DNA from: Octopus vulgaris | Taxonomy: Eukaryota | DNA length: 64,000 nucleotides | NCBI GenBank assembly: GCA_951406725.2 | Contig: OX597817.1 | Location: forward strand, 5,518,001-5,582,000 | Direction of reading: 5' to 3' | In this document: in pieces, positions 3,270 through 63,902 of the stretch | Layout: the number at the start of each line of letters is the position of its first letter | How positions within the stretch are numbered: position 1 is the stretch's first letter | Notes under the pieces: model-generated | Database searches by the model: none | What the model was told of the DNA's origin: nothing | The model's input: only the letters and a program-made list of their open reading frames with translations | Position numbers and translations under genes: made by a program

Positions 3270-3577
3270 GTGGAGGTGCAATGGCCCAGTGGTTAGGGCA
3301 GCAGACTCACATTCGGAGGATCGCGGTTTCGATTCCCAGACAGGGTGTTGTGTGTGTTTATTAAGCGAAAACACCTAAAGCTCCACGAGGCTCCGGCAGA
3401 GGGTGGTGGCGACCCCTGTTGTACTCTTTCGCCCCAACTTTCTCTCACTCTTTCTACCTGTTTCTTGAGTAACGCTGCGATGGACTGGCGTCCCGTCCAG
3501 CTGGGGGGAACACACACACGCCACAGAAACCGGGAAACCGGGCCCATAAGCCTGGCTAGACTTGAAAAGGGTGCATA
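3270..3577 (+). mobile_element. SINE family C (tRNA-derived head)
   Basis: A-box-like tggcccagtgg and B-box-like gtttcgattcc. TSD aacacataaaa on both sides. Confidence 0.85.
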
Positions 3578-21454: not shown

Positions 21455-21848
21455 GTCCATGTCTGTGTAGTTAGTAGCTTGCTTACCAACCATATGGTTT
21501 CGGGTTCAGTCACACTGCGTGACACCTTGGGCAAGAGTCTTCTACTATATTCTCTTGTGTGTAGATTTGGTAGACGGAAACTGAAAGCAACCCATCGTAT
21601 ATATATGTATGTGTGTGTGCGTGCGTGTGTGTGTGTCTGTTTGTGTGTCTGTGTTTGTCCCCCACTATCTTTTGACAACAAATGTTAGTGTGTAAACGTA
21701 CCCGTAACCTAGCGGTTCAGAAAAAGAGACCAAAGGAATACGTACTAGGCTTAGAAAGAATAAGTACTGGGGTCGAATAGTTCGACTAAAGGCAGTGCTC
21801 TAGCATGGCCGCAGTCAGATAACTGAAACAAGTAAAAGAACAAACGAA
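21455..21848 (+). mobile_element. SINE family B
   Basis: gacaccttgggcaagagtcttctac...ctgaaacaagtaaaaga. Confidence 0.88.
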
Positions 21849-21854
21849 TATATG

Positions 21855-21897
<43 letters not shown>

Positions 21898-21962
21898 CTG
21901 AAATAAAAATAAGAAAAATGTGCATAATGTATATATTTTTATGAGATAAAAATATTTATACT

Positions 21963-21992
21963 GTCAACAGGTTTCGCTTTGCTAATCATGAC
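21963..21992 (-). ncRNA. Degenerate minimal hammerhead motif
   Basis: Minus strand: gtc-aTGATtA-gcaaagc-GAAAC-ct-GTT-gac. Confidence 0.4.
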
Positions 21993-22274
21993 TAAAACTT
22001 TTGAGAAAATATTACAATTTTAAGGTATCATGCGAAGTTTACAGTTCATGTTAGTAGCAGAAAAGTTGTTTCATAAAACTGTGTGTTTTGGTGTGTGTAT
22101 TTGCATATAGAGACACGAACATACGAGCATGAGGGCACATCCTTATAGACACGTACACATATATGCATACATGAGTATATACATTTTTATGTATATGTGT
22201 GTAAATATATATATATATACAAATAAATGAAAGAATGGAGTTGAACGACGAATTAACAAAATTCCTTTATTTTA

Positions 22275-22357
22275 TTTTCGACATATGTTTCGAAGGCTGC
22301 GTATTCCTAATTTCGAAGGAATAAGGGGTGCATTATGCCGCCTTCTCATCAGGAAAA
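22275..22357 (-). ncRNA. Canonical type I hammerhead ribozyme
   Basis: Minus strand: ttttc-CTGATGA-gaaggc...gccttc-GAAAC-atat-GTC-gaaaa. Intact core, 5-bp stem I, 6-bp base of stem II, palindromic stem III acatatgt. Confidence 0.88.
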
Positions 22358-22483
22358 GCAAGGAACTTATGTCAGCATCAAGATGCACAAAAACTTATAT
22401 ATATATATTGGTAAAAACGGTAAGATAACAAAAGAAAGAAAGAGACCTCAATATTATGTAAATAGAGGAAATTTATCTATAAA

Positions 22484-22658
22484 ATAATATGTTACAATTA
22501 CTCAATAGTCAAGATAAAACTCAGTTTCAGATGCAGAGTGAAATCCACAGCACCATCTCTTCGGTTATCTGGCCAGATAACCGAAGAGATGGTGCTGTGG
22601 ATTTCCACTTCGGCATCTGAAACTCAGAGTTTTATCTTGACTATTGAGTAATTGTAAC

Positions 22659-22665
<7 letters not shown>
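22484..22665. repeat. Near-perfect palindrome (about 90-bp arms) carrying two divergent HHR-like motifs
   Basis: Centre ctgg|ccag with no spacer. Right arm: gataa-CcGAAGA-gatg...catc-t-GAAAC-tcaga-GTT-ttatc. Confidence 0.8.
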
Positions 22666-22697
<32 letters not shown>

Positions 22698-22707
22698 CAG
22701 AGAGAGA

Positions 22708-22759
<52 letters not shown>

Positions 22760-22787
22760 CTCTCTCTCTGTTTATTTTCTCTTATTC

Positions 22788-22823
22788 CTTTATGTTGAAG
22801 AGCATAGGCTCGAATCGTAAAAG
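22788..22823 (+). ncRNA. Degenerate minimal hammerhead motif
   Basis: cttt-aTGtTGA-a-gagc atag gctc-GAAtC-GTA-aaag. Confidence 0.5.
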
Positions 22824-22912
22824 TCTTTCTCACTGTCCCGAGCGTCAAACTAATACGCCTGCTTTTTTGTTCATTCACCAGTCTTCGCCTTTTGTTTTTC
22901 TATAAAATTCAA

Positions 22913-22982
<70 letters not shown>

Positions 22983-23536
22983 AAGAGAGAGACGCACGGA
23001 TAGATTGAGTGAGAGAGGGGGAGGAAATTAAAAGAAAAAAGAAACTCACAGAAATAGAGTGCCGTTGTAATAGTTTCTATGCTCTAAAATTACTCTTTAA
23101 GAAATAACTCACTTCAACATACTTTTCATATGCCTCAGTATGTGTGATGTGCATGTGTGTGAGTGTACGCCTATCTATCTATCTATCTTTCTATCTATCT
23201 TTGTATATGTATACGTATGTATGTACTTGCGCACATACGCACACACACACATGCTCTCACGCGCACATGCATATGTCTGTCAGATTGTATGGAGAGAGAG
23301 TGGGACGTATTAGATGGGGCGAGATTGTAAACTAGATTGATAATATCTACCACAAGAACGCATACATAAAATTTTAACTGGCTGGCTCTTTAATGTCAAT
23401 TGAACAGAGACCAGAGGCAAGAGAAACTTAAAACCAAACATTTAAACCAAACTTTACCCCAACTAAATTACCATGAACTAAATAAATAAACCCCGAGAAA
23501 GTAACGATAACAGCAACATTAATAATAACAATTAAA

Positions 23537-23924
23537 GTGGAGGCGCAATGGCCCAGTGGTTAGGGCAGCGGACTCGCGGTCGTAGGATCGCGGTTTCGAT
23601 TCCCAGACCGGGCCTTGTGAGTGTTTATTGAGCGAAAACACCTAAAGGTCCACCAGCCCCCGACAGGGGATGGTGGTGATCCCTGCTGTACTCTTTCACC
23701 ACAACTTTCTCTCACTCTTACTTCCTGTTTCTGTTGTACCTGTATTTCAAGGGACCGGCCTTGTCACTCTCCGTGTCATGCTGAATATCCCCGAGAACTA
23801 CGTTAAGGGTACACGTGTCTGTGGAGTGCTCAGCCACTTACACGTTAATTTCACGAGCAGGCTGTTCCGTTGACTCGGATCAACCGGAACCCTCGTCGTC
23901 GTAACCGACGGAGTGCTTCCAACC
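23537..23924 (+). mobile_element. SINE family C with alternative tail
   Basis: Same tRNA head and body as 3270. TSD aataacaattaaa. Confidence 0.88.
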
Positions 23925-24119
23925 AATAACAATTAAAAGAATCAAATAAAAAGAGAAACAGTTGTAAACAAAGCAGGAGAAAAATTGCAGAGGCAATGAA
24001 TCAGTCAACTTCTTAAGACGTTAAATAAAATAGCACGAAATATTTGTCTTGGCGTTGTGGTTTCAAATTTCGCCGAGGTCCAAACTGCGTTCTATCCTCC
24101 CAGTATCGATAACTATAGT

Positions 24120-44044: not shown

Positions 44045-44460
44045 AAGGTGGTGAGCTGGCAGAATTGTTAGCAAACCGGGCGAAATGCTTAGCGGTATTT
44101 CGTCTGTCGTTATGTTCTGAGTTCAAATTCTGCCGAGGTCGACTTTGCCTTTCATCCTTTTGGGGTCGATAAATTAAGTACCAGTTATGCACTGGGTTTG
44201 ATACAATCGACTTAATCCGTTTGTATGTCCTTGTTTGTTATCTCTATGTTTAGCCCCTTGTGGGTAATAAAGAAATAGGTATTTCATCTGCCGTTACATT
44301 CTGAGTTCAAATTCCGCCGAGGTCGACTTTGCCTTTCATCCTTTCGGGGCTGATAAATTAAGTACCAGTTAGGCACTGAGGTCGATGTAATCGACTTAAT
44401 CCCTTTGTCTGTCCTTGTTTGTCCCCTCTGTTTAGCCCCTTGTGGGCAATAAAGAAATAC
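44045..44460 (+). mobile_element. SINE family A dimer
   Basis: Head plus two tandem body and tail units. TSD gaattcaata at 44036-44045 and 44461-44470. Confidence 0.9.
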
Positions 44461-50364: not shown

Positions 50365-50740
50365 ACTCTCTTTTATTCTTTTACATGTTTCAGTCATTTG
50401 ACTGCGGCCATGCTGGAGCACCGCCTTTAGTCGAGCAAATTGACCCGGGACTTATTCTTTGTAAGCCCAGTACTTATTCTATCGGTCTCTTTTGCCGAAC
50501 CGCTAAGTGACGGGGACGTAAACACACCAGCATCGGTTATCAAGCAATGCTAAGGGTACAAACACAAACACACAAACACATACACATATACATATATACG
50601 ACAGGCTTCTTTCAGTTTCCGTCTACCAAATCTACTCACAAGGCATAGGTCGGCCCGAGGCTATAGTAGAAGACACTTGCCCAAGGTGCCACGCAGTGGG
50701 ACTGAACCCGGACAAGCTACTTACCACACAGCCACTCCTG
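50365..50740 (-). mobile_element. SINE family B
   Basis: Near-consensus copy with a short deletion in the head. Confidence 0.9.
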
Positions 50741-51428
50741 TAAGATGTTATATATGATATATATTATGGTGTAGACTTCTGACCCGTCTACGCTGACAAT
50801 AACTGCCAATATGAACTAATTCAGACCGTAACAACTCGTGCACACCCAATAAGAATTCATGAATTTTGAATTTTGAATTTGTTGAATATTGCAAAAACCC
50901 TATCACTTTTTCTTCTGGGTTCAAGCCTCGGGCTCAGCATGAAACTTAAATGGTAATTTATTTCTTATGTATAAAGATCATGTGTATATTCATGTGTGTG
51001 TGTGTGTGTGTGCATTTATGCCTATGTATGGTTATGTTTTATTTGCATGTATCAGATTCCGTGTCTATATTAGTTTATATCACTCAAAGAGCCTGTGTCG
51101 TATGTAGTAATTTTTTTATGTCCAGCCTCTAGCGATTCGACACTTAAAGACCGATAAAATATCTTACTGTACTGGATCGATATTACCCACCGAACGGTTG
51201 AATGCTATTTCACAGTTCAGCAGCTGTTCATTGGTTAGGCCAAGTAAATGAACTTATAAAAGAGTTCTTTATCATTTGTAGATGTGGTGAAGCAGTTTCT
51301 CACAGCTATTGAACTTGCCGAAATCTGCTATGAATTCTTCAGTGAAAATTCGTTCATGAACGAATTCACGAATCGCTATAATTTCTTCCACCGGTATGGA
51401 ATCATTTTATGAAGCCGTGATGTTTGAA

Positions 51429-51810
51429 TCTCTCTCTATATAAACGGCAGTTTGTCTGTGCGTTTTCTGTGTGTCTGTTTTCTCGTACCCTCACTCTGAC
51501 CACGGCTTTCAACCGATTCTGATGAAACTTGACACACACATAGCCCAATGTCATAATTCAAAACTAACGCAGCGAAAATTTTGAAAAGTTCTCTCAGTTC
51601 TGAAAAAATCGATAAATTCGACATGGGGTCGAGAATCAGAAACCCAAACCACAGACCGTCTAGGGGACGCAACTCCACCTTTTTTAACTCTCAAAAAAAT
51701 TTACCATCATTTTTTTTCCATTTTTTTGCTATTTTTTGGCTATAACTCTCTAAAAATGCTTTATAGTTATTTCCCTTACAAACCTGAGCAACGCCGGGCG
51801 ATACTGCTAG
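51429..51810 (+). mobile_element. Non-autonomous Helitron (second copy)
   Basis: A|TC...gcaacgccgggcgatactgCTAG|T, near-identical to 26473-26846. Confidence 0.88.
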
Positions 51811-52974
51811 TATGAAATAAAGAGAAATGTGAGAGCATGACGTCTGTGCCTTTCCAGTTACATTGGATGAGCTGTGTAAGAAAGAAGGTAAATACCTTTC
51901 TAAATTGATGTCTGAAACTGGTCCGTGGATTTGGCTTGTTGTTGAATATTGGCCCTACGTAGTCTTCATAACAGTAATAATTAAACGCTTTGAAGAGAAC
52001 ATGTACATAGAAACTCGACCTGTTAAAAGTAACAACTAAATAACCATCAGATCGCAAACAACAAAAACAAACGGCATTGTCCTAAGAGAATTAGCTGCTA
52101 TAAGGAGAGAAAAAAAAAACTGTTACACTATCTTAAATCACGTACAAAGCACATTTTTTGCAATTATGGTATGAGAATTGGATATTCAAACCCATTAACA
52201 ATAGCGTATTGCTGGCGTTTCCCCACCGAGATCTTTGAGTAATGGTGATTGCAGTGATAGTTGGCGACAGACGTTGATGATGATAAAGTTGGTGAGAACG
52301 GTCGCACTGGAGTTACAGTGAAGAAACAATGATGACACTAATGAAATAAGATAATTATTATATTAGTTAGGGTGAAGATAATGACTCTGATATTAGTAAT
52401 GTTATGTAATGTGTTGTCGATGAGGCTGGGGACGTCGAAGTTATTAGCGGTGGAAGAGCTAGTGATGATTAATGACTGGTGGTGCTGGACTTTTTGATGA
52501 TATAATTGTTCGTTCTACCTGAGCCATTTTTGTTTATATATATATATACGCACACACATACACACCAGTAAGCATGTAGATGCCTATAATCAAAAGCTTT
52601 CCAGTTATGACCATCCCGTCTTTATCAGACAACGTACAATTAATTTATTTAATGTGTGATTTTTTTTAAAGATGGTGGTATGTGATTTAAGTGGTATATG
52701 TACGATTAATGAAAGCTGAAAAAAATTCTTCCCAAACTCTTACTCAGTTTCACGTGACCGTTCGCCAGACAGATGTGATTGTCACAGCTATCTGACGAAC
52801 AGTCACGTGAAACTCTGAGTAAGCTTTCAAAAATTCTTTTCAGCCTTAGTAAATAGTATAATATTACTTTACTGTTAGCTCGTATTCGAGTACTATTTTT
52901 CAACCTTGTTTTGCATCTACGAGCTTACTGGTGTGTATGTGTGTGTATGTATGTATGTATATATATATATATAT

Positions 52975-53990
52975 ATGAACACAACATTGACGACAGCGGC
53001 AGAAACACCAGCACTACGGCCGGAGATCCGGAGATGACGACCAGCCTATACCAGCAGGATCCGTGAAGCTACCGGTCCCACTCCCAGTATTACCAACGAC
53101 GGAAGTCACATCGCCATCGGTGATAGTAGCAGCACAACCACTACGGCTAGGGATGACTATTACAATGACAACAGTCACAACGATATCGCCAGACCCACTC
53201 TGCAGCAACATCTACAGGCCCGGAGCTTACAGAAATGTTCCCAAGATGTGAACAGAACCAACACTCAAGTCCGGAACTATATCAGGCCAGCCGGAATTGC
53301 CTTCAAGCGGTCCCTTTACAACCACTAGTCCTCTTTCAGGATTCTGGAAAGACGATTCGTCAAGTCCCTGGTTAACCACGTGTAGCGCCTTAAAGATGAA
53401 GGAACCCTATACAATATCAAGTGGAGAATCATAGATCGACCATGATGCTGTATCAACAGGAGCGGACGCTGCAAGCTTTGCACAGCTGAGCAAGCTAAGA
53501 TCATCAAAGACTTCCTAGAATCAAGATTATTAAATTCCCGACATGCGATTTATATTCCCTGCTCCATTGCAAACGCTACCTGCTGCAAACACGGGATTCC
53601 CCATTCATTGATTAGATCTGAAAATGTCCTTACGAGCTAAAGACAACCTAAGGGCAGACGTTCCCCGTTTGCCATTTTAGCCTATATGGACTGTCGACTG
53701 AACTGATCTGAGATAACTCGTCTTCGCCGACCCGGATTGTTTATATTTTGTTTACTAACTAACTGTAACGGAATTCTATCTTCACAGTTTGAAGAGGTAT
53801 TTGACCATCGCCAATAGTCTGGCGAGTCGTTCATAGAGCTAAACGCTTTATGGATGCGAAACCATTGCTCACTCTATGATCGGACATATACATAACTGCA
53901 TATAAATCCATTACTGCACTATGCTTTAGAGTGCGCTTCTTTATCGGATATATGATACACTGACGATATTTATAAACTTAAATATGTTTC
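52975..53990 (+). mobile_element. Penelope-like element 3' part (GIY-YIG endonuclease remnant and HHR)
   Basis: NYIRPAGIAFKRSLYNH*SSFR and SLVNHV*RLKDEGTLYNIKWRII...CKLCTAEQAKII...LNSR. Begins after a (TA)n tract. Confidence 0.82.
53786..53873 (+). ncRNA. Degenerate hammerhead motif with branched stem II
   Basis: agt-tTGAAGA-...tcgcca/tggcga...catagagc/gctttatg...-GAAAC-cattg-CTC-act. Confidence 0.5.
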
Positions 53991-54029
53991 AAGTAAAGAT
54001 TGGCTGAGGCCATGTCTAACATAATAGCA

Positions 54030-54660
54030 CGACTTGATACGATTCGTTAAGTTAAATTTTGTGATACCATGACCCATTTAAGTAGGGAGGTGGTGTTTAA
54101 CTGAGATGTATTCAGGAATAGGTAGCTTATCTGGTATTCCCTGAAGAAATTTGTTCAGTTTTCGTTTGAAGGCAATGGGATCTTTTCTGTGGCTTGTTTT
54201 GTGATAATGTTAAATAGAGCAGGGCCCGTTGAGGAAAAGAAATGGTGTTACAGTGAATTTATGTATTGTGAGCCTGAATTGTGTATGGGGTATATAGCAC
54301 ATGGTACCAGTTTTGGATGAATCTGATGTTAACGTTGTTTGGACAATGCTGGTATATTCTCCACATTGTGCAAATGATGTAATACTTGCGGCGGCGCTGG
54401 AGAGAATAAAGTTTCCATGTTTTAAGATCAGTCATGTTTTTACTTTTTTAGTAACTGCTCTCTGGAGTGAATTAATTCTCGCAATGTTTTGTTTGGCGTG
54501 GGGAAACTTAGGGGGCAGCAGTATTTTAGGTGTTCCCGTACGGAGGAGGTGAAAAGGGGAATGAGATCTTACTCTCTGGACTGGAAACGTCTGAGGATTC
54601 AGAATTCATCCTACGGGCCATATCGACTTTACTGTTGATGTAAGCCGAGATTGCAAGCGT
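54030..54660 (-). pseudogene. CR1/L2/Jockey-group LINE RT C-terminal remnant
   Basis: Minus strand gives LYSLQRRRKYYIICTMWRI, FSSTGPALFN and FKRKLNKFLQGIPD. Confidence 0.75.
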
Positions 54661-55029
54661 CTGTGGCGCGACCACATAGTCGCTCTCTCTCACTCTCCTT
54701 CTCTCTCTCCCTCTCTCCCCCTCCCCCCTCTCTCTCTCAGGAAATACTTCGGTACGGTGCCAGTCGTTAACTGACTACTTATCACTTCCCAAACTTTACC
54801 CATTGTAAAAGATCCGGTATAGTGAAGCAGATATTCGGGACATAGAGATTCTACTAAACATTCTAAATATATTTTCAAATTACATTTTGTGACCGGATCT
54901 GAGATCGTGTTGATACTGAATCGGTTATATTGTAGAAATTCAATTTTATCCGGTTCAGAACACAACACAAAATCCGCTTAAATACATTTTCAGTTTATTT
55001 TATGAGGCGCCAAAATTTTCATCGCATAA

Positions 55030-55412
55030 GCGCAGGAGTGGCTGTGTGGTAAGTAGCTTGCTTCCCAACCACATGGTTCCGCGTTTAGTCCCACTGCGCG
55101 GCACCTTGGGCAAGTGTCTTCTACTATAGCCTCGGGCCGAACAAAGCCTTGTAAATGGATTTGGTAGACGGAAACTGAAAGAAGCTCGTCGTATATATGT
55201 ATATGTATATATATGTGTGTGTGTGCGTCTGTGTTTGTTCCCCCCAACATCGCTTGACAACCGATGCTGGTGTGTTTACGTCCCCGTAACTTAGCGGTTC
55301 GGCAAAAGAGACCGATAGAATAAGTACTAGGTTTACAAAGAATAAGTCCCGGGGTAGATTTGCTCGACTAAAGGCGGTGCTCCAGCATGGCCGCAGTCAA
55401 ATGACTGAAACA
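55030..55412 (+). mobile_element. SINE family B, full length
   Basis: Near-consensus copy with CpGs retained. Confidence 0.92.
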
Positions 55413-55559
55413 AGTAAAAGAGAGTAAAAGAGCTCAACTGTGAGTACGACTTGGTCACTGGCTCGGTTCTTCCACCACTCTGTGGAATTGTTTTCCTTGC
55501 TCAGGTCGCAGATGGACGACAAAAATGTTAACAGCTAAAAAAATAAGTGAAAAGCGAAT

Positions 55560-56600
55560 TTAAATAGCTTTTGTGTTTTTGAGATTGCTAAAATAGTTCT
55601 TCCACAATGTAAATTGATTCTAAATTTAGTCTTGCATATTTCAATAGCAACGTAAAAAGGAAAAGAAAATATTTTCATTTTAAGGATACAACTGGATGCG
55701 TGAAGGACTGCAGTAATAAGTTCTATGTCACTACTTTTCTCGCCTAAGATAGCTGACATATGCCATCTTTCTCATCTTCGTCTTTGCACTACCAAACAAA
55801 CGTTGCGTGCTATGGCATGTAATTAAACCGAATACGTTTTCTGTGAAACATTGAAAAAGTTAGACTTTTTAAAAGCAGAAATAATATATCTAGCCAAGTC
55901 AGTCATTGATTGTTTATTTTCAAATGCCAGCTACCTAACTTCAGAATTGTCTGACAGATGAGATAACATTATTAAATGGAAGACTAACAGATAATTTTAG
56001 ATGATGGGAAACAATAGGGAGATTTTTTTCCCGTCCAGTTCTCCATATACTTTCAACATTTTTCTATAACTCTTCTGAGCTTTTTAGAAGTCAATCTATT
56101 ATTACCCTGAAAATGGAAATATTCTCCAAACATATGTTTGAGCCAAATTCTTTTCAGTTGCGTGATAGTTATTTGTAGACAGAAGGGAAACACGAAAAAG
56201 TGGGCAGGGGTTTAAAGTATGAGATAATCAGCTCATAGGTCTTTAGCTAAATCCGTTAGCCAACTCTCTATGCACGAGTTCATGAAAAAAGTCAGTGCCC
56301 TATACTTTAAAGATTTGAATTGAGCTATTTTATACCACGCCATGAAATGAGGACTAAGCGCCTACTCATGAAAGCATATGCGAACTTAAAAGTTCTATGT
56401 GTGTGTATGTTCGTAGTATAATACAACCTCCAGGATACACTACGAATCGTTTTGTGATTATACCATAGCTGCGTAACTTATTTTTCAGTTGCAAAAGTAA
56501 CCGTTTATGCACCCGAAGAGCATATTGTGATAACATAATGTCAGGAAACGTTTTGCAGTGTCCTGTTGATTGTATTATATACCATAGTAAACTAAAACCA
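55560..56600 (-). pseudogene. hAT (Buster/Charlie-like) transposase remnant
   Basis: ...AVLHASSCI...KTKFRINL resembles the hAT C-terminal dimerisation motif. Upstream SAFKK segment. Confidence 0.4.
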
Positions 56601-56745
56601 AGCTGGTGTTCTCGTCTCATATATAATCACACACACACACACACACACTCACGTGCGCGCGAATGTGGTCACTTTTATTTCTGTGCACTTTAGATATAAA
56701 CAACACAGATTCTACATTTGGGTACTCTGAAAGGTTTATAGAAGG

Positions 56746-56807
56746 CAGTGGTTCCCAACCCTTTTATTTAAATTAGCTTCCCCACGGACCCCTTTTAATA
56801 TGATTAT

Positions 56808-56872
<65 letters not shown>

Positions 56873-56933
56873 TTTAAATTTAGTTCACAGAATCTCAGTA
56901 CTACATTTGCGGACCCCAGGTTAGGAACCACTG
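56746..56933. mobile_element. hAT-Charlie-type MITE
   Basis: TIRs cagtggttcccaacc / ggttaggaaccactg. 8-bp flanks atagaagg / atgtaagg. Confidence 0.85.
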
Positions 56934-59900
56934 ATGTAAGGTGTATATTTTGCATGTTAAAAGTTTATAATTTTGTCACGAAACCTATGACCCTTAGGCT
57001 ACATGTAGTTCTTTATGACGTTTTGTATTGCCCATAAAATGTCGTGATTATGTAAACATAACGTTTTATTAACATTTTATATATCCTGTATACGAGAGCT
57101 GCTGAAAAGTTCCTGGCTTTGAGTAAAAGAAAATACAAAAGGAAAAGTTAATTATGATTTTATGTAATGTATTCCCCTCTCAGATTCATACACTTAATCC
57201 AGCGGTCCTTCAGGTTTTCTAATATCATAGAACAACTTGGAAGATTGGGCTTCCAGCCAGGCCTTTTGCGATAGCGTTTAAGCTAGGAAATATATAGGTG
57301 GGGGTGCTGAAAATTTCAGTCAGAGAACTTTTTTTTTCCCGCTATTTTCGTCCCCCTTCTCTCGCTCTCACTTTCTCTTGTACAAATATTTATAATTTGT
57401 TTAATACAACATACAGTGAGTGTACTCCTCACTACATACCATCTTTGTTAAATTTATGCACAGCATTATCTCATTTTGGAAGGTGCATTGTGATTTTTCA
57501 GGTTTTCAGAAAACTGACATATCTAGAACAACAGATCAATGCACTTGGTGAAATATGACCTGGGGTTGCCACAATGTCATAGTAAACTCAGTATTAAACA
57601 TTGCTCTCTAAAGATTTAATTTACAACAATTATTATAATCATTGAACCAGAAAATGGATGTTTGTCATTTCCAACGATAAGACTTAAGTTGATGGAATAA
57701 CAAAGTTATCTTGTATTCAATCAATTGGTGTATAAAACGGTTTCATAAGCATGTGTACCATTAACATAATCTTCTTGCAGAACCAGTGTGACACACAATC
57801 TGTAAATTACTAATATAATCCATTTGATAGGCTTCTACACAGTTTCCGTCCATCCAGTTTCAATTGCAAAGCGTGGATCAATCCAAGGCAGCAGTAAAAG
57901 ACATTCGCCCAAGATACGAAACTGTAGGATTGAGCCTGAGAGTTTTGGAAATTGCGAAGCGAACTTTTTAAACACGTGGCCAAGCACCGTTCAACTTATT
58001 GAACAACGCTCGTATTGCCTCCAAAAAATGTTAACCACTCGACTAAAGCTACCAATTGAGACGATAAATAACGTTGATTTAAATACTTGCAGCTGTAACT
58101 ATAGAATGTGGATGATGCGTTGACAATTTGGATTGTGTCAGACCGGGGCAGAGCACGTCACAGTGTCGAAGCTCAGGTCACATGTGTGATAGATTATGCC
58201 ACAGGTGCATTAGATTAAATCACCTGTTTGGCGTAATGTATATTACATCCCTAACATAGGAAAACAAAAAAGGCATCTTTGTTACACTGTTACATTGTGT
58301 CCATCAAGCAAAACAATATAGAAAATCACCTTAATGATGATGATGGTGACAATTAAAAGACGGATTTGATAGATAATGATGGTTATCGCTGTTTTTGGTA
58401 GCCTTGGTTCTAATGATGTATCTTTGCTGACATTCTGTCCATCTATAAGGTTTGTCAGTCTGGCTGTCTATCATTTTCTCAGTAAGTTTGTCTATCAAGC
58501 TGTTTATATGAGCTTCAAAACGCTTTCTACCTGTGTGGTCTACTCACTCAGCCACCCGTATTTTGAATCAGTGACTTTTACGGGTCTGTTTTCCTCTTCG
58601 TCTCCCTTCCCTGCTCTACCCCCTTCTTGTCTCTTTCTCTTCTCACCCAATAGTGTATGTAAATATATTAGCACACATGCAGTTTCCAGAATAAAAACAA
58701 ATAAACACACACACACACACACACACACAAACTTAGAAAACTCAAAAGGACTCTTCTTCCCCACTCCTCACTTAACGTAACAAAAACTGTTTTTAAAAAA
58801 TTGCTTTTATGTCAATGCCACCATGTACAAGTAAATGTGAGATCGTTTTATATGTATATATATAGTGTGATGTTGTTCACTTTGTGTACATCGCGTATAT
58901 ATATATGTATACACACACACACAGACACGAGCGATGTAGAACGGCAGTAAACCTCGGTTGTACGTGTTTTCATAAATCTGATTCTCAACCCTGGCTATTT
59001 CATTCACTTCGCTTCACTTTTCGTTGCTGTGGTTTTCCAGACGCTTGGAGGAGGTGGATTTCACAGTGAGAAAAATATTTTATATACATATAATATAGAT
59101 AAGTTCTTGTCATTATTGATTTAGGCTACGCCTGACATAACACCGCATGAAACATTCCTTTAAGTCATGTTCTCGGACATCGCAGCTCACTCAAGTAGGG
59201 AGTTATTGTTACGCGCAGTGCTAGCGTTGTGCCTTGTGCTTTTGCAAGGTAGAAACTCGGAGCGGATTTGAAATCCTAGTTACTTCCAACATACGAACAT
59301 TTTTTACGTATAATTCCTCCAAGAAATACCAAAAACTACCGATACCAACGTTGGCACTGCGCGTAATTATTGTATGTAGCAGGGAGACCGCTGGGCGCAA
59401 CCACGTCGTATTACTCTTTAAATGTGTTACTCGAAGATGTTATGCCATGAGTTACCTATAACATACACACACATACACACTTGTTGATTAAGATATGTCA
59501 CTGGAACCTACTCAAAGGTGATGGAGAAAGTGGCATAAGTATAGTTCAAGCTTTTGTCACTTAAATCCACTGACGTACAAATGTCCCACTATCGTTTCAT
59601 TTCTTGATCCGTATTGTATTTTATTGTATCCATAGTGTTGGATATCCTTGCATTTCAATTTCATTATACTGTGTAATTTCATCCGATTTCATTATATTTG
59701 ATTTTTTAACAAGGGTATAACCCCAGCCCCTAAATGTTTTGTTATGTACTTGTGCTGTCCCCTCTGTGTCATGGCCTGTGTGCCAAATAAAAGAAACTGG
59801 ATATCCTTGCACATGTAAGGACGGAGATAATTCAGAACAATCACGCACACTATGGCCGACGTTCTGAGTTCGATCCGTCTGCGTGACATATTAGACAAAT

Positions 59901-60068
59901 ATCATTCCCTATTATCTCAGGCTGAGCTATACCTTGCGAGTGAAATCTGGTTGACAGAAATGGCATCGAAGCTTGTCACATAGATTGCAATTGTAACTGA
60001 AAAGGTGGAACTTTGTCACACTGGTTCTGCCTGAGAATTATATTAACGGTACGTGCTTATTCAGGAGC

Positions 60069-60302
60069 GAAGGCGGTGAGCTGGCAGAAACGTTAGCGCG
60101 CCGGGCGAAATGCGTAGCCGTATTTCGTCTGTCGTTACGTTCTGAGTTCAAATTCCGCCGAGGTCGACTTTGCCTTTCATCCTTTCGGGGTCGATTAAAT
60201 AAGTACCAGTTACGCACTGGGATCGATGTAATTGACTTAATCCGTTTGTCTGTCCTTGTTTGTCCTCTCTGTGTTTAGCCCCTTGTGGGCAATAAAGAAA
60301 TG
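60069..60302 (+). mobile_element. SINE family A, young
   Basis: Perfect 21-bp TSD ggtacgtgcttattcaggagc at 60048-60068 and 60303-60323. Confidence 0.93.
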
Positions 60303-61000
60303 GGTACGTGCTTATTCAGGAGCAGGTAAAGTTAATCGAACAAAGGAATCCTCATCATCTACTGCACGCACTCTCTCTCTCTCTCTCTCTCTCTCTCATC
60401 CTTTTCAAGGTATTGCGAGTGATGAAGTAATGAAGCAATACTGTTAGATTTCGGCATAGCGTAGTTCAGAATACACGCAGTGGTTTGTCATCACTCTCTA
60501 CAAGATGAACTCAGGGTTACAAGCTACCAAAAACATTCTTTAACTGTACAGTGTCCTCGCTGCCTCCGGTTGTAGAATGTATTCCTGCGTATCGTCTATT
60601 TGCATTTAAATATGCCGTGCAAAGGAAGTAAGTGTTTTCAGAATACAGAATGGGGAATCGATAAGAACGTTTCTACTTTTGTTTTCTGGGGATAAAATAT
60701 TTAACGCTAAAAATCTGAATACATCGCGTGTTACAGACTAGACAACAGTTAGTATCAACAGCAGTGTCCTTCGATTGACTAGCATCTTATTCTGTCTCAG
60801 AATCTAGCTTTTATGAAAGATTTTCGAGTTAATTTATACAATGATGAGAATAACAAGAGATGCTACGTTTGTAGTCGCTTCTATTTGACAGAGAACCTCC
60901 AGACAAAGGCCCCCACCTGTTGAAAGTATTGATAGACGAAAAACGTCGACGTATTTTAATTACGATCGTTTATCGGCGAAAATTTAGGAAAAAGTAAACA

Positions 61001-61390
61001 GCACAGGAGTGGCTGTGTGGTAAGTAGCTTGCTTACCAACCACAGGGTTCCGGGTTCATTCCCACTGCGTGGCACCTTGGAAAAGTGTCTCCTACTATAG
61101 CCTCGGGCCGACCAAAGCCTTGTGAGTGGATTTGGTAGACGGAAACTGAAAGAAGCCCGTCGTATATATGTATGTGTGTGTATATGTTTGTGTGTTTGTT
61201 TGTCCCCCCAGCATCACTTGACAACCGATGCTGATGTGTTTACGTCCCCGTAACTTAGCGGTTCGACAAAAGAGACCGATAGAATAAATACTAGGCTTCC
61301 AAAGAATAAGTCCTGGGGTCGATTTGCTCGACTAAAGGCGGTGCTCCAGGATGGCCGCAGTCAAGTGACTGAAACAAGTAAAAGAGTAAA
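61001..61390 (+). mobile_element. SINE family B, full length
   Basis: Near-consensus copy. Confidence 0.92.
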
Positions 61391-61964
61391 GATTAGAGAG
61401 AGCAGATATCACTTGGTTGGAGACGTCCAAAATATTGCTAATCTGTCTATTACTGATTGGTACCCTGTTCCGGCGATCAGATATCGAACCGCCTACGATG
61501 ATGACAAAAGTCTGTATCGGTAAAAATAAGTGTCTATTTAATTTACTAAACACATTTGAACATAAAATTAACACGACCTGGTTTATAGAACTAAAATATA
61601 TTTTCAGATAAACCACTAAAATTTAAAAGTAACCAGTGAAAAAAACAAAGAAAACAATAACATCATTATCTCTTATCTCTGTTACTTACTTTAGAATTCA
61701 AACATTATTAGAGTAGAAAAGAGATTGCCGAATATTTCCATCATAGGCCTTTAATAATCTTTCTGGGGAAAAAGTCTGTTTTATTTTACCTTAGGTTACC
61801 TAGCTGTAACGGATTAGAGACCTAATCTGTATGAAATGTCTGCAATGCACAAGCATCATGTCTAGGAAAAGGATTAATTTTTCTTTTGCTTAAAGCCTTG
61901 GGGCAGGAGCTAAGCATTTGCTCTCAGTGGGAATCCTACTGCCATCATGAAACACTAAATATTC

Positions 61965-62178
61965 TTTTCTACTCTAGGCACAAAGCCCGAAGTTTTGGGG
62001 GAAGGAGCCAGTCGATTAGATTAACCCCAGTACGCAACTAGTACTTAATTTGTCAACCCCGAAAGGATGAAAGGCAAAGTCGACCTCGGCGGAATTTGAA
62101 CTCAGAACGTAACGGCAGATGAAATACGGCTACGCATTTCGCCCGGCGTGCTAACGTTTCTTCCAGCTCGCCGCCTTA
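61965..62178 (-). mobile_element. SINE family A, young
   Basis: Perfect 16-bp TSD gaaacactaaatattc at 61949-61964 and 62179-62194. Confidence 0.93.
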
Positions 62179-63517
62179 GAAACACTAAATATTCCATTAC
62201 CTATGGATACCCTGATGAATGTAGCTTTACGGTGAAAGCCTCATCTACCTGGTGCACCCATTCGGAAGTTGGGGAGTAAAAGTTTTGTTTACGTTGAGTG
62301 GCCTTGTTTTAACACGGAATCTGGATTGTCTTTTTGGCGCCTAAAAAGTAACGAAAGATATGAAACAAAACTCCAGCCCCGGTAAAGAAAATCAAATCAA
62401 ATCACGAACTCTGAATCACCAAGCAAAAATAAGAAAATATAAAAGTAACAACAAATACATGAACGAAACTTTAGTACTGGTGGATCTTTATAATCACTAT
62501 GTAGTACTTTTGTAGCTTTAACTTAACCGAGCAGGTGTAGCTAATCGGTTGGACTACGGTATGCGATTTCCAAATAAATGTCTCTTTGTAACTAAGGTTC
62601 ATATTGCATTATCCAGTCGACAGAGGTTAATCGCACAGAGTACCGAGTGACAGTCTCGACTTATGCTGTTAATGTCAGTGTGATTGAATGTCACAGCGGA
62701 GGCGAGGAAAAATGATTCGGTCAAAGTGCGATAGTTACTGTTTCTATACATTTATTATAGGTCGTGTGCATCCCAGCACACTGAGATTCATAATGTTATT
62801 GATGCTCTTGATATCTTTGGGTTTTCATGTTTGTCTGGAGTGAGGAATAAGAATAATAAGTTTAGGTTGGTGTTTTAGTGAGTTTATAGTTGTGTAGTGG
62901 CAGGAAAGGTACAAGTTAAAAATTGTGGACTCATGCATGAACAAATGTCCTTTATTATTTTTTTTTATTGTTATCAGTTTTGCTTTTGAAAGTGGAGATG
63001 GCCATATTTTTGTCAGTGTTGTGTAGTTTCATATCAACCCCAAATAGACTATATCGAGCAATAAGTAATGGGGACAATCGACCGAGTACGATTCACAGAC
63101 CCAGTATTTCAAATATGCCATGCATCCGCTTTGCTGAGGATCATATTGTGCAATCCTATATGCAGACTTTTGTTGCTGTTGTCGAAGCTGTTGTGTTGTA
63201 CCATTCTTGCTGTTAGCATTTCCAAATATAGCTTAACAATATTCATATGATGTGGAGGAGGATCATGATAATACAGCTCATTTCAAATGTAAAGAGAAAT
63301 GTGTGTGTGTGTATGTAAAAATGAAGCGTTTTTTAAAGGTGTAATTCGAATTACCTTAAAGTTATGACTAATAGCGTGTAAATAAATGTTGCATTAAAAA
63401 AACCGTTAGATGGTAAAAGTATTTTAACACAAAACTCACACGCTGATTATTTATAGTTCTAACTAATTCAAGTTAAAAACGATTTATTTTATGCCCTTCG
63501 AAATTTCAAAATGCTTA

Positions 63518-63582
<65 letters not shown>

Positions 63583-63726
63583 AAATGGATAAATGAATTA
63601 TCTTGTTACGGATTATTCAAATTATAACCGATACCTGGGTAGCAAAAATCACAACAGAAAAATCACGGTTGAGGTTACGACCATGGGGTATCGCAACCGT
63701 GCCTTAGTGCGGATAATTGAAGTTTT

Positions 63727-63893
63727 ATATATTTAGTGAGGGAACAAATGGAGCTGAACGAAGATTTTACAAAATTCCTTTTTATTATTTTCTACATATG
63801 TTTCAAAGGGAATTTGCAGCCTTTGAAACATATGTAGAAAATAATAAAAAGGAATTTTGTAAAATCTTCGTTCAGCTCCATTTCTTCCCTCAC

Positions 63894-63902
<9 letters not shown>
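63727..63902. repeat. Fold-back (about 82-bp arms) made from the 3' half of the 22275 HHR family
   Basis: Arms include atggagctgaacgaagattttacaaaattcctt and acatatgtttc, homologous to 22232-22298. No CTGATGA present. Confidence 0.85.

Follow-up and report, generated by a model that had tools for sequence, protein, structure and literature searches.

A TA-bounded stack of hammerhead-bearing repeat ends of probable Penelope-like origin in Octopus vulgaris

The window analyzed here, a stretch of 64,000 nucleotides from contig OX597817.1 of Octopus vulgaris, is AT-rich animal DNA in which microsatellites and repeats are dense. Between positions 21850 and 22945, four short segments (C1 to C4) with hammerhead-like motifs are separated by TA runs, which raises the question of whether they represent an uncatalogued retrozyme-like system, as an initial annotation proposed, or the remains of a known type of mobile element. 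The parts of the stack and its flanks are as follows:

21460-21847, no strand assigned: repeat that we take to be SINE-like, with six more copies of 340-400 nt (70-78%) and partial ones
21848-21896, no strand: (TA)n run A, from the repeat scan
21897-22140, minus strand: C1, apparently old, low-abundance family (family contigs), its 3' end adjoining run A
22143-22219, no strand: degenerate TA/CA repeat, then (TA)7
22220-22395, minus strand: C2, apparently young, very abundant family, 5'-truncated (family contigs and second copy in the window)
22396-22408, no strand: (TA)6
22409-22572, minus strand: C3 left arm with a full 109-nt tail (family contigs)
22570-22575, no strand: palindromic hexamer at the C3 head-to-head junction
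22573-22665, plus strand: C3 right arm, an inverted copy with a 31-nt tail only (family contigs)
22659-22756, no strand: two TA runs around a 12-bp inverted piece (22697-22708) of the C4 start
22757-22915, plus strand: C4 with a 96-nt T-rich tail (motif model)
22916-22992, no strand: (TA)15, then (AG)23

The TA runs, located at 21859-21896, 22205-22219, 22396-22408, 22663-22756, and 22916-22946, confirm the division into four cassettes at approximately the places first proposed. However, the extension of C1 to 22200 was not upheld, as 22143-22203 is a degenerate TA/CA repeat outside the cassette. Family contigs identify 22408-22483 as the tail of the C3 family rather than a spacer, and C4 is interrupted by (TA)24, with the 12-bp inverted piece on its 5' side. 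The cassettes also differ in sequence as claimed, being mutually unrelated, with a maximum local alignment z of 3.1 over 21 segment pairs, the pair of C3 arms aside. Full cassettes end in a T-rich tail adjoining TA, 60-109 nt past the predicted cut in the hammerhead sense; the T-rich tail of C1 reaches 69 nt beyond it. In two of nine other copies of the SINE-like repeat, (TA)n directly follows the 3' end, and this repeat is a possible source of the first TA run.

A hammerhead-like motif was present at every site named beforehand, although their quality varies:

21961-21994, minus strand: C1 hammerhead variant with an A3-U8 core pair and a 2-bp stem II
22275-22357, minus strand: C2 hammerhead, perfect type I by the descriptor, predicted cut after 22280
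22512-22570, minus strand: C3 left-arm hammerhead, stem III with a 2-nt deletion
22575-22637, plus strand: C3 right-arm hammerhead with U4C in the core and one additional base ahead of GAAA
22788-22823, plus strand: C4 hammerhead, PLE (Penelope-like element) minimal form, substituted at 3, 6, and 15.1

The suggestion that each cassette carries its own type I fold therefore stands as regards the presence of a motif at each site, but only C2 is perfect among the five. The C2 hammerhead, with a stem I of 5 bp, a stem II of 6 bp, and an 8-nt palindrome as stem III, is the sole perfect match to a strict type I descriptor in the 64 kb, and no match occurred in 30 shuffles. With two relaxations the descriptor gave five matches (C2, both C3 arms, and two elsewhere) versus a mean of 0.67 in six shuffles, and both C3 arms need these two relaxations, namely U4C and one extra base ahead of GAAA. 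A permissive hammerhead model, tuned after the motifs had been seen, produced nine matches in the window, with five of the six best falling within the 1.1 kb of the stack. The hammerhead scan that had been recommended was run on the window with a divided outcome. The descriptor finds C2, whereas nothing in the window reaches the gathering score of an Rfam model, and the 52 weak Rfam matches of the region include no hammerhead. Minimum-energy folding of monomers returned the hammerhead fold in none of the five motifs, a result that is not decisive for dimer-type motifs, and the self-complementary, palindromic stem III gives a stable self-duplex, estimated at -7.0 kcal/mol for C2 and -7.4 kcal/mol for the C3 right arm. 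The stack is a real pile-up of hammerhead-bearing repeat ends and probably no working unit.

The stretch 21897-22660, comprising C1 to C3, was matched to public contig sets X1, X13, and X14 and to raw-read set X22. Matches comprised 6117 contigs in X1 (organism A), 1297 in X13 (organism E), and 576 in X14, which was taken as RNA by guess, together with one read in X22. These contig counts and depths bear out the expectation of multi-copy rather than single-copy families for C1 to C3, and with it the claim that several ribozyme-bearing families are present. Expressed as a multiple of the depth of the contig from the locus itself (15.6), summed depth was 15-83x for C1, 2.4-5.1x10^4 for C2, and up to 9x10^4 for C3, values that indicate only the order of magnitude because summed contig depth is no copy number. 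C2 and C3 are very abundant families, at roughly 10^4-10^5 times the depth of the locus, a ratio distinct from a true copy number. For C2 the ratio declines sharply immediately 5' of the hammerhead and is down to 0.6x10^4 in the last bin on the 5' side. Organism E shows a similarly low depth for C1, an abundant C3 tail, and almost no C2 at 80% likeness; this pattern suggests that C1 is the oldest family and C2 the youngest.

Family variants were called at a threshold of 15%, and 40 of 47 were listed. Among those listed, the core, stem III, and GAAA of C2 show no change at or above 15%; the C2 family has one fixed difference in loop II, variation at the outer end of stem I, and, in stem II, one change at 19%. 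No change is listed at position 4 of C3, so U4C appears to be the state of that family, while C occupies the position ahead of GAAA in 33%, 69%, and 34% of depth across the three contig sets. In the C1 family, the 7-nt core (A3...U8) shows no change among the variants listed. The implied conservation of the hammerhead core in family consensuses holds for C2, whose core is intact in the family at the 15% level among the variants listed, but not for C3, with U4C, or C1, with A3-U8.

It is improbable that only C2 and C3 bear ribozymes, with C1 and C4 being unrelated TA-associated repeats whose motifs arose by chance or are long dead. Such a view would accommodate the failure of both motifs with the strict descriptor and their scores of 1.5 (C1) and 0 (C4) in the post hoc permissive model, close to the background tail and with chance expectations of about 0.02 and 0.04 per 1.1 kb. 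It would also agree with stem III self-duplexes that are unstable as they stand, with the damage to stems I and III of C1 at the locus, and with changes at 21975/21976 that resemble CpG decay and strike the C1 core in many family copies. However, three family letters shift C1 toward a better fold in X1: the two at 21961 and 21962 bring stem I back to 5 bp (166/260 and 147/260 of depth), and the one at 21969 restores a 4-bp palindrome (142/260), these stem-restoring letters being carried by just three or four contigs per set. In addition, C4 has the published PLE consensus layout bar three positions (CUGANGA-H / GAAA-C-G-U-H, the form typical of PLE hammerheads), and the tail spacing of C1 and C4 is the same as that of C2 and C3.

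The flanks of these families were (TA)n-enriched as anticipated, for C3 across three contig sets and for C2 at its second copy. Contigs passing the end of the C3 tail enter TA in 74, 32, and 14 cases, with agreements of 0.49, 0.51, and 0.87, and both C2 loci in the window are TA-flanked, the second being:

63725-63897, no strand assigned: second C2 locus, a head-to-head inverted pair beside (TA)n, truncated inside stem II

A short unrelated segment (63581-63725) lies between this second locus and another TA run. Both abundant families continue 5' of the copies in the stack, with loose ends at 22393/22396 and at least 97 nt further in another copy for C2, and at 22570 (28 contigs in X1) for C3. 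Family contigs upstream of 22570 are pyrimidine-rich and end in AG right before stem I of C3, a candidate splice acceptor comparable to that of the Drosophila virilis Penelope intron, whose end lies at helix I. Of the 15 joints listed out of 22, 11 link an antisense C3 piece to a sense one at other breakpoints, some of which may stem from indels of the locus copy itself; X14, the presumed RNA set, had no joint listed. Four joints near the predicted C3 cut were discounted, as two match a deletion of the locus and about two would be expected by chance on a rough count. At the 3' end, the length difference between the two C3 arms of the stack is 78 nt, and the optional tail of PLEs is 30-40 nt.

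The same contigs bear on whether the stack could be partly an assembly chimera of unrelated repeat contigs joined via TA runs. The scaffold contains an N gap, none of the listed contigs spans 21897-22660 or bridges the joins between cassettes, and 22188-22237 was passed over as repeat in the matching. However, a single-locus contig covers 21897-22187, and the C3 arms differ at several places and are therefore no mirrored artefact, which leaves a chimera very improbable. The families and their TA flanks hold either way.

The stack shows four of six listed features of PLE pseudo-LTRs: a type I hammerhead with palindromic stem III close to the 3' end (perfect in C2, variant or decayed in C3, C1, and C4), 5' truncation at variable points (C2, C3, and the second C2 copy), an adjacent inverted truncated copy at the 5' end (C3, the second C2 copy, and the C4 stub), and a (TA)n insertion bias (C3 in three contig sets, C2 at both window loci). 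This combination is documented for PLEs in PMC8557442, where (TA)n targets are described along with 5' truncation, an adjacent inverted copy, and a hammerhead close to the 3' end; palindromes at inverted PLE junctions (PMC3846280) and insertion of PLEs in or beside earlier copies (PMC6765202) have also been reported. We therefore consider it probable that C1 to C4 are 3' ends (pseudo-LTR pieces) of four unrelated PLE families inserted successively in one TA run, with parentage and order of insertion both being inferred. As truncation, inversion, and TA targeting correspond to the published PLE pattern and head-to-tail tandems do not occur at the locus, the proposal of an uncatalogued retrozyme-like system is unsupported.

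Under the PLE reading, an element-encoded GIY-YIG endonuclease would nick TA-rich DNA, and reverse transcriptase would start 60-110 nt downstream of the hammerhead, in most cases halting a short way upstream of it. Occasional fold-back would account for the inverted head-to-head arrangement seen in C3, at the second C2 locus, and in the C4 stub. TA would be left on either side of every insertion, and because of this the target would persist and several families could accumulate. The hammerheads would be inherited from the parent element, cleave only as dimers via the palindromic stem III, and decay once inserted.

No reverse transcriptase or endonuclease frame was found in the translations of C1 to C4, and no cassette was linked to one. 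Pattern scans for C3 in metagenome and genome contigs and for C2 in viral contigs gave no matches, Pfam applied to 25 of the 83 ORFs in the window identified only a mariner transposase, and a six-frame family scan of 50500-63500 found no families. A search for an ORF that begins downstream of the hammerhead, the arrangement of an anole PLE, gave no convincing case. As none of the cassettes has been connected with a PLE frame, C2 and C3, and perhaps C1 and C4 as well, could instead be dedicated non-autonomous families. These would be short non-coding elements of fixed length that arose from PLE pseudo-LTRs, depend on PLE proteins for movement in trans, and are present as dispersed retrozyme-like monomers. 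We regard this as rather unlikely. The great abundance of a 150-250 nt piece, the steep fall in depth 5' of the C2 hammerhead, and the 576 contigs from the presumed RNA set, whose RNA status is guessed, would be in keeping with it, as would the argument that retrozymes are pLTR-derived, their monomer fractions from 0 to 1 (bioRxiv 10.64898/2026.07.22.740005), and the finding that, in a rotifer, a pLTR is sufficient for mobilisation in trans (PMC3846280). However, other C2 copies extend at least 97 nt longer at the 5' end, C3 5' breakpoints are varied, the locus has no tandem unit, and no tail-to-head (go-back) joint was found among the 15 of 22 joints listed.

Elsewhere in the window, 53272-53583 on the plus strand, read through three stops, gave 513 protein matches at E <=0.001 (best 4.7e-19); the similarity lies in the C-terminal portion of proteins that contain RT-like and GIY-YIG motifs. 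Among ten matched proteins that were scanned, one was above the GIY-YIG cut-off and one gave a weak match, and two long ones contain, by eye, what we take to be RT-like, cysteine-linker, and GIY-YIG motifs. The permissive model places a degenerate hammerhead 206 nt downstream of this match. The relic belongs to a different family and therefore illustrates the layout in this genome, not the parents of C1 to C4. The decayed PLE-type endonuclease and hammerhead together occupy 53272-53870 (plus strand), beginning after (TA)n at 52958-52976; their two closest relatives are low-complexity proteins with the endonuclease end only, a hint of an RT-less PLE derivative.

Other repeats were also observed in the window, such as a decayed Mos1-type mariner transposase at 27180-27821 on the plus strand, running on to about 28200 (Pfam HTH_48, E 5.5e-20), a second repeat with a tRNA-like head by eye at 23540-23925 that matches 3273-3465 at 87%, and a 184-bp repeat in two tandem copies at 44094-44459. 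A short segment at 34732-34789, T-rich on the minus strand and adjoining (TA)n, runs into an N gap and may be a similar tail.

Most likely, the cassettes are uncatalogued families of a known PLE type, in which only the variant cores stand out as a lead. The stack is mostly a tidy case of known PLE behaviour in a lineage where such hammerheads seem undescribed. Insertions of this kind may also account in part for the frequent interruption of this genome's TA runs by short unique pieces. A more speculative and doubtful possibility is that the bulged U4C core of C3 and the A3-U8 core of C1 are working variants missed by descriptor searches, aided by dimerization or protein, within TA-targeting mobile RNAs that consist only of a pseudo-LTR and whose copies number tens of thousands. 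If these cores hold up, a U4C family at 10^4-10^5 copies bears on the need of PLE hammerheads to cleave. Work by Lunse and colleagues from 2017 reportedly describes PLE hammerhead variants and may already cover cores of the C1 and C3 type. U4C is known from viroids as a variant of much reduced activity, a 2-bp stem II is common, and U3-A8 is natural (PMC3088659), while A3-U8 is not named in the sections of that paper drawn on here. AT-rich cleavage and a protein-assisted hammerhead have been described, with hammerhead cleavage being dispensable for insertion in vitro (PMC11167929).

A literature search for hammerheads in cephalopods or in molluscan non-autonomous PLEs returned no paper. PLEs, divided into 190 families, make up 6.83% of the assembly of Octopus vulgaris, with ribozymes unmentioned in the consulted sections of that report (PMC13282606), and the corresponding sections of the squid genome paper contain only a count of 235 Rfam hammerhead hits (PMC6962438). 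The consulted portion of supplement file 2 of PMC4209133 has no octopus or squid row.

Compared with known systems, the cassettes share the type I motif and the palindromic stem III with the canonical hammerheads of PLE pseudo-LTRs, such as those of Neptune, Nematis, and Penelope/Poseidon (PMC4209133). Dispersed single hammerheads from truncated PLEs, opposite-strand pairs, and dimer cleavage were reported in 2014 (Cervera and de la Pena, PMC4209133), and those hammerheads are, like the cassettes, mostly single and dispersed, with some opposite-strand pairs and an AU-rich flank. The same source describes a U3-A8 variant and a Penelope intron of Drosophila virilis that ends at helix I. C4 shares the PLE minimal consensus layout given in its supplement. 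In contrast, C2 is without the additional base that PLE minimal hammerheads typically have after A9, C3 departs from the canonical form by U4C and its 3' bulge, and C1 by A3-U8 and its 2-bp stem II.

The non-LTR retrozymes of animals (PMC7229834; bioRxiv 10.64898/2026.07.22.740005) are likewise short, non-coding, PLE-related, and very abundant, with a type I hammerhead. However, the head-to-tail hammerhead tandem that defines them is absent at the locus: retrozymes are described as tandem units with circular RNAs, whereas the stack contains single or inverted copies of four families. The cephalopod Naiad PLEs (Craig et al. 2021, PMC8557442) are similar to the cassettes in their (TA)n targets, 5' truncation, and adjacent inverted copies. 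Three octopus Naiad 3' ends showed no resemblance to the cassettes by eye, and none of five short cassette motifs was found in the part of the PMC8557442 supplement that was searched. Naiad elements are described there as being without canonical hammerheads, whereas the cassettes of this stack bear hammerhead motifs.
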